Assembly: GCA_951406725.2 (NCBI GenBank)
Contig: OX597816.1
Span: 132,928,001-132,992,000 of the forward strand
DNA from: Octopus vulgaris
Lineage: Eukaryota
Direction: 5' to 3'
DNA: 64,000 bases
Shown here: piece after piece, positions 63,756 through 63,793 of the stretch
How positions within the stretch are numbered: the first letter of the stretch is position 1
Layout of the letters: the number at the start of each line of letters is the position of its first letter
Program-made: the position numbers and the translations under genes
The notes under the pieces: model-generated
Databases searched by the model: none
What the model was told of the DNA's origin: nothing
What the model saw: only the letters and a program-made list of their open reading frames with translations

Positions 63756-63793
63756 TCTTTCTGTCGAAGAGCGTAGGCTCGAAACGTAAAAGA
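63756..63793 (+). ncRNA. Minimal hammerhead-like motif (CUGUCGA core) in a pLTR-like fragment (about 63690-63885)
   Basis: tcttt CTGTCGA a GAGC gtag GCTC GAAA CG TA aaaga: perfect stems I and II, 4-nt palindromic ACGU stem III. Confidence 0.6.

Follow-up and report, generated by a model that had tools for sequence, protein, structure and literature searches.

A family-wide A6U hammerhead-like motif in the pLTRs of an autonomous Penelope-like element of Octopus vulgaris

Minimal hammerhead ribozymes of metazoan Penelope-like elements (PLEs) were described by Cervera and De la Pena in 2014 (PMC4209133), and the parts of that report compared here already contain most of what we find at the octopus locus. 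In both, the motif occupies each of the two pLTRs of an RT-EN element and has a short stem I, an additional nucleotide separating position 9 from 10.1, a G10.1–C11.1 pair and a palindromic 15.2–16.2 segment without loop 3; in both, most copies are solo and truncated. The Neptune motif of Acropora digitifera in the same report has nearly the same layout, with a 4-bp stem II, a 4-nt loop and a C–G palindrome. The extra A and the loop-less palindromic stem III, to which a sequence-only reading of the locus drew attention, are indeed present, but they are standard for PLE minimal hammerheads and not distinctive. The difference lies at position 6, which is A in all 56 representatives of Fig. S3 of that report versus U throughout the family described here. 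The one core variant named in those parts of the report is U3–A8, and cephalopods are not among the hosts listed there.

Four other systems bear comparison, each cited from part of its published text. Poseidon of Anolis carolinensis (Frangieh et al. 2024, PMC11167929) likewise has a pLTR hammerhead, an internal start of reverse transcription and an AT-rich target, and the model of protein-assisted cutting used below is borrowed from it. On the other hand, its core is canonical, its ORF starts inside the hammerhead rather than about 0.8–0.9 kb downstream, and its RT start site is not homologous to the target, whereas here a UA tract matches (TA)n. The hammerhead of phage Bcep176 carries a natural change at the same position, A6C, and cuts slowly but measurably with a preference for Mn2+ (PMC3088659, PMC7151607); it is, however, a single phage sequence with C instead of U and its own stem III, against tens of thousands of dimer-type copies here. 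The PLE hammerhead variants of Lunse, Weinberg and Breaker (2017) share the diminished stem III, the PLE association and dimer cleavage, as related in PMC6765202. Non-LTR retrozymes (10.64898/2026.07.22.740005) also carry a type I hammerhead in short PLE-related repeats, but as tandem non-coding units, while the octopus copies are dispersed, differ in how far they extend 5' and derive from an autonomous element with the same sequence. We found no description of an A6U core or of a U6 family in the literature searched, a comparison outside which lie the Lunse 2017 alignments and repeat libraries; nor did term look-ups in PMC11014351 and PMC13481778 return one. Judged by its sequence, then, the motif is the published PLE minimal hammerhead in all but position 6, and only U6 is unusual. 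Added here are a young autonomous element with U6 in both pLTRs, a test across subfamilies, and sister families with A6 and U4C.

The window analysed is a 64-kb stretch of the Octopus vulgaris genome. We scored it on both strands for a 28-nt motif and obtained matches at 63761–63788 (plus strand, no mismatches), 34906–34933 (minus, none) and 37629–37656 (minus, one). The chance expectation is 0, and none of 100 shuffles of the window reached three matches, so the motif does occur at the three sites proposed from the sequence alone. The features of the window are as follows.

63687–63884, plus: 5'-truncated PLE pLTR fragment of about 200 bp, subfamily F6; from 63687 on it is 85% identical to young element L103, and it agrees with the F6 consensus at 151 of 158 aligned bases.
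63756–63793, plus: minimal type I hammerhead-like motif, the sole intact copy of the window, by pattern match and stem pairing.
63756–63760/63789–63793, plus: stem I of that motif, by pairing.
63764, 63765, 63768 and 63781, plus: its core positions U6, N7, extra A and G12.
63769–63772/63777–63780, plus: its stem II.
63784–63787, plus: its palindromic ACGU, with the predicted cut after 63788.
63885–63898, plus: TA tract at the 3' end, likely the target and the place of priming; in full-length elements the same point is occupied by a TA tract of the element.
34825–35001, minus: pLTR fragment of subfamily F3 with a TA tract after it; agrees with the F3 consensus at 132 of 144 aligned bases.
34902–34937, minus: U6 motif with its core intact (34906–34933) and stem I broken, by pattern match and stem check.
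37535–37671, minus: pLTR fragment of subfamily F4, flanked on both sides by (TA)n; agrees with the F4 consensus at 120 of 131 aligned bases.
37625–37660, minus: U6 motif with G12A at 37636, the catalytic G lost, predicted dead; pattern match with one mismatch.

Most of what had been read from the letters of these copies stands. All three have U at position 6, position 7 varies (C, U and G), the extra A follows A9, and the loop-less ACGU of stem III could pair only across two copies. The reading had also put the predicted cut correctly, between 63788 and 63789, and all three copies lie in one short repeat, of 140–200 bp, that ends at a TA tract. Two particulars had been generalized too far. GAAA is absent from the 37.6-kb copy, which reads GCTC-AAAA, and stem I fails in the 34.9-kb copy, where the 5' arm is CAAT against AAAG, with two mismatches. 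The only intact motif in the window is that at 63.8 kb; the other two have decayed. We considered whether the two minus-strand copies are the two pLTRs of one element and rejected this: they belong to different subfamilies, and no ORF match lies anywhere in the window. Rfam gave no match at gathering score in the window and none at E≤10 on a young copy (L103:4150–4420). Elsewhere in the window, at 58922–59109 and 59109–59817, a 94-bp unit repeated twice (100%) stands beside a 357-bp unit repeated twice (99%), ending at a TA tract; this looks like another young tandem element.

How large is the family, and is U6 its normal state? The motif had been presented as a three-copy family. In the whole genome (2.80 Gb, 227 contigs) the exact U6 pattern has 13,456 matches, the same pattern with A6 has 217 and a reversed-pattern control has none, so the core of the family is not the canonical CUGANGA. 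When only the stems anchored the pattern and the core was left free, there were 19,000 matches; among the first 100 of these, counted by eye, position 6 was U in 94, C in 3, A in 2 and G in 1, and position 17 was A in 78, U in 20, and G and C in 1 each. In a sample whose loci were picked by a downstream anchor only, 62 of 70 reach the motif and 57 of those 62 have U6. The genome-wide pattern, the core-blind sample and the anchor sample all return U6, and the suggestion that U6 is the family state, with no canonical A6 in the consensus, is borne out. Four public contig sets listed no position-6 variant at 10% or more, the major variant being U-to-A at position 17; these runs are assembled contigs, in which cut ends cannot show, and a look-up of public data carrying the sequence listed none from RNA.

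Are the rare A6 copies survivors of an ancestor within the U6 clade? In a tree of 258 copies they are interleaved with U6 copies in every older subfamily, which does not support this candidate; the tree carries no support values, its alignment is short, and the matching mode dropped some copies, the 37.6-kb copy included. The A6 share of 1.6% is about that of neutral T-to-A decay (6/248 at four other T positions), with a mild A6 excess in the oldest subfamily. Single copies decay at catalytic sites too: in the downstream-anchor sample G12 has become A in 9/62 and G8 is changed in 8/62. A candidate second, unrelated U6 family with another stem II (590 matches) was also set aside, the first 100 matches being mostly decayed members. 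At L052:2164–2215 (minus) stands a single further motif, more distant in sequence, whose core is CCGAAGA and whose cut site has GCU; it may represent a fourth family.

The autonomous parent was traced by walking upstream from long copies to locus L079. There an RT ORF and, after it, a long 3' UTR lie between two pLTRs that each hold the motif, the first of them (354 bp) separated from the ORF by a short TA tract, and the whole is bounded by (TA)n at either end. The 354-bp repeats are 90% identical and their motifs lie 4,180 nt apart. The encoded protein has 934 homologs, the best 55–57% identical, and the homologs listed carry PF00078/PF28514/PF26215, some also PF01541. Searched against the genome, it gave 21,769 first-look candidates, of which 65 were scored and 30 loci read. 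The U6 motif follows the ORF in 29 of these 30, and 28 of the 29 other ORF loci are 92–98.5% identical to L103, most of them above 96%.

In three of five young copies checked, the ORF runs to 1064–1072 aa from the first Met; in the other two it is broken near the start. The three intact ORFs have DKG, YIDD, a CX4CX2C linker at residue 836 and a GIY-YIG domain (IIY...YIGQT) with CxxC. In Pfam terms the L103 ORF scores 33.1 bits for PF00078, above the cut-off, and a weak 17 bits for PF01541, below the cut-off of 22.6. The linked autonomous PLE ORF that had been sought is thus in hand, with RT, CX4CX2C linker and GIY-YIG, and we regard the identity of the family as a PLE as near certain. The linker, the domain order and the (TA)n targeting point to the Neptune type, the CX2-5CxxC linker being a mark of the Neptune clade that is common also to Nematis and Naiad, according to the part of PMC8557442 consulted. 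Distant PLE-like ORF fragments, 28–29% identical to the young ORF, occur at L302:1–900, L329:1851–3081 and L079:2767–3825; they are near family copies but out of register with them.

An upstream pLTR with the U6 motif is present in 15 of 20 young long copies, with the core intact in 14, and an internal TA tract joins this pLTR to the body about 105 nt after the predicted cut. One young copy has two motifs 4,478 nt apart, the overall spacing being 4.2–4.5 kb, and the ORF of the young elements starts about 0.8–0.9 kb downstream of the motif. Since U6 is found in young ORF-bearing copies and in both pLTRs, it is the state of a recently active autonomous element.

Most copies, like those of the window, are short 3' fragments with the motif uncut. 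The end of these copies falls about 95–105 nt past the predicted cut, at a TA tract which is part of the element itself. Among 100 copies not chosen for length, a TA-type tract lies 70–160 nt after the motif in 85 (at 90–99 nt in 47). Upstream of the motif, 13 of them could be followed for more than 110 nt; with only three references in use, this number is too low for old subfamilies. The earlier description, '(TA)n-associated PLE or retrozyme-like', therefore holds in its first half: an autonomous PLE exists and the copies are its 5'-truncated pLTR debris. A retrozyme-like tandem repeat was rejected, the copies being dispersed and mostly single, with the long ones running into the ORF. A GCCATG word 60–80 nt upstream of the motif stands at or just after the start of 49 of 100 copies, and also at 63687 and 35001 in the window; it could mark a place where 5' truncation is frequent, or else a short non-autonomous unit. 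At L010:1501/1357, L019 and L214 we observed motifs paired in inverted orientation at a distance of about 150–240 nt, which recalls published descriptions of 5'-truncated PLE copies in inverted arrangement.

Two sister families provide a comparison within the same genome. The first, S1, is a homologous pLTR family with the canonical A6 core (CUGAAGA) and a 3-nt loop II (4,909 first-look candidates, 30 loci read). The second, S2, is a third pLTR family, mostly U4C (CCGACGA core), with a 3-nt loop II, a GUU or GUC cut triplet and 12,895 genome matches. Their loci are these.

L117–L146: S1, for example L122:1607–1657 (minus).
L277–L336: S2, for example L284:1420–1630 (plus).

The outer pair of stem I is G–C in S1 versus C–G in the U6 family, a compensatory change, and loop II grows from 3 nt in S1 to 4 nt in the U6 clade, where it is invariant. 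S1 may serve as a natural control for the U6 motif. In S2, an eye count of the first 100 of the 12,895 matches gave C at position 4 in 73, U in 25 and A in 2, and position 4 is C in 29 of 29 loci of one subfamily. The S2 units are about 190 nt long between (TA)n tracts, and many begin at the same point. Of nine U4 copies among 30 S2 loci, seven have, by eye, shared flank letters of their own, which suggests that the U4 copies are an older branch of S2. No ORF in register with S1 or S2 was found in the 30, 30 and 29 loci inspected. Upstream of the element at L006 by some 250–330 nt, on the opposite strand, GAAA is followed by palindromic CAGCTG and TA, which looks like the 3' half of a further PLE hammerhead whose stem III is short.

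A6 is the state of S1, S2 and all 56 published representatives, and U6 is therefore derived by parsimony. Homology to the canonical A6 family, with the compensatory stem I pair, also fixes the register of the motif; an alternative core register is ruled out by the same homology, since the A6 family aligns the U with A6.

If U6 replaced a canonical A6, did the motif remain under selection afterwards? To address this question we compared the consensuses of seven subfamilies, set by flank markers alone and of 6–39 copies each, the copies being limited to at most three mismatches from the motif. None of 30 constrained core and stem columns differs among the seven consensuses, and none of 4 in loop II; both of the 2 free columns differ, as do 59 of 120 gap-free flank columns (Fisher p 3.5e-8), a flank figure inflated by roughly ten columns because flank markers define the subfamilies. 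The free position 7 is U, C or A among the consensuses and position 17 is A or U, a pattern beneath which there are few lineage changes, about three at position 7 and one or two at 17. Position 17 thus alternates between A and U, with G in 1/100, as the NUH rule predicts.

From the contrast of 0/30 with 59/120 in these alignments we conclude that the motif has stayed under selection after A6U, and that a neutral relic is excluded despite the caveats. Stem I, stem II with G10.1–C11.1, the extra nucleotide after A9, the loop-less palindromic 15.2–16.2 and the NUH triplet are all present. In 12 lineage representatives, 94.8% of 96 stem cells are paired, against 20–49% in slid controls. Covariation, which had been put forward as a check on the stems, is thin: one pair of stem I has changed on both sides, seen only against the sister families, and stem II is uninformative because it never varies. 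The conservation pattern does not single out catalysis, for positions 7 and 17 are also unconstrained in the monomer rod considered below.

What should A6U do to a hammerhead? Here again the published evidence is taken from parts of the papers. U4 and A6 belong to the CUGA uridine turn, and in a deep pairwise scan all single and double mutants of that turn had low activity except the C3–G8 swap (PMC9901934), a source we cite for the turn in general and not for the value of A6U itself. Together with the slow A6C hammerhead (PMC3088659, PMC7151607), the scan leads us to predict low activity for U6, as a change in the CUGA turn. Canonical minimal hammerheads are inactive alone and weak as dimers (PMC4209133); with canonical dimers already weak, A6U on top may bring activity to zero. 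One PLE hammerhead cuts only with its protein, and its reverse transcription starts inside the RNA; insertion by this PLE in vitro does not need cutting, and RNA-seq showed no ends at its cut site (PMC11167929).

On balance we lean slightly towards the following account. The motifs of the window are 5'-truncated pLTR ends of an autonomous PLE, and its family-wide U6 hammerhead would be a slowed ribozyme that cuts only as a dimer, probably helped by the protein of the element. The element endonuclease would nick (TA)n DNA, the UA tract of the RNA would pair with the nicked (TA)n, and reverse transcription would start there, inside the RNA, usually stopping early and leaving solo motifs such as those of the window. 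RNA that is either uncut or re-ligated would serve as template. The two motifs of a full-length transcript would join through ACGU/ACGU and exchange their stem I arms, giving a double hammerhead that would cut after GUA or GUU and yield unit-length, possibly circular RNA. U6 would weaken the uridine turn, making cutting slow or gated, and most RNA would stay intact as template. Solo copies, having no partner in cis, are likely inert. This dimer account draws also on the presence of U6 in the youngest, ORF-intact subfamily and in both pLTRs (15/20).

Could the same element instead carry a motif that no longer cuts? Here A6U would have killed catalysis, and the stem-loop would be kept for binding the element protein, in RNP assembly or RT positioning. 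We consider this quite possible, though short of probable. The low activity of U-turn mutants (PMC9901934) agrees with it, as do, in the relevant part of PMC11167929, the dispensability of cutting in vitro and the lack of RNA-seq ends at the cut site of the other PLE; genomic copies continue uncut through the site, and loop II is invariant. The non-cutting form might be an in-register rod with U4·G16.2, G5–C15.2, U6–A15.1 and tandem G·A pairs. In predicted folds U6 can pair with A15.1 in this monomer rod, and A6U raises the G5–C15.2 pairing probability from 0.01–0.23 to 0.53–0.98 in all four U6 backgrounds, ranking 1–4 among 48 core substitutions. By free energy, however, it ranks only 8–35 of the 48; C3, U16.1 and A14 never vary although the rod has mismatches at all three, and no lineage has fixed U16.1G, C3A or G17, changes that would do more for the rod. 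Neither S1 nor S2 backgrounds give the rod, and a single rod-hairpin explanation for A6U and U4C fails for U4C. The double hammerhead is predicted to be 1.3–6.7 kcal/mol less stable than two folded monomers in five U6 backgrounds, but the effect of U6 on this penalty is mixed: up in two, down in two and flat in one. We treat the modelled rod effect as a lead only.

We judge it improbable that the U6 core roughly matches canonical minimal hammerheads in activity, A6U being a tolerated neutral change offset by the dimer context, by loop II (GUAG) or by a distal contact. The family has been highly successful after A6U, and loop II lengthened to its invariant 4 nt in the U6 clade, both of which would suit such compensation. 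Against it, no second mutation in the pairwise scan rescues the CUGA turn except the C3–G8 swap (the part of PMC9901934 consulted), and the published representatives keep A6 without exception (those of PMC4209133).

That the motif is a functionless relic, carried in every insertion because it lies near the priming site, is very improbable and largely refuted by the subfamily contrast: single copies do decay freely, catalytic positions G12 and G8 included, but such decay after insertion is expected under every model, whereas between source lineages the motif is unchanged beside equally close flanks that are not.

Returning to the slowed dimer ribozyme, a stronger form of it would be a protein-gated hammerhead. 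Selection would have tuned down the element's own ribozyme by breaking the uridine turn, confining cutting to the RT-endonuclease particle, and would have done so twice in one genome, by A6U here and by U4C in the sister family, each time in the larger, later-spreading branch. We offer this tentatively, as a rather unlikely proposal. If it is true, searches whose descriptor requires CUGANGA would pass over tens of thousands of such motifs in each genome.

What hammerheads do for PLEs is a live question, these ribozymes being weak in vitro and dispensable for insertion in the one system that has been reconstituted. The natural homologous series of A6, A6U and U4C, together with a young element whose ORF is intact, makes the cutting rate, the dependence on protein and the need for cutting directly comparable. 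Should U6 cut, the textbook consensus for the core would be too strict where a protein takes part; should it not, a still-spreading element would be keeping a ribozyme fold for a non-catalytic job.
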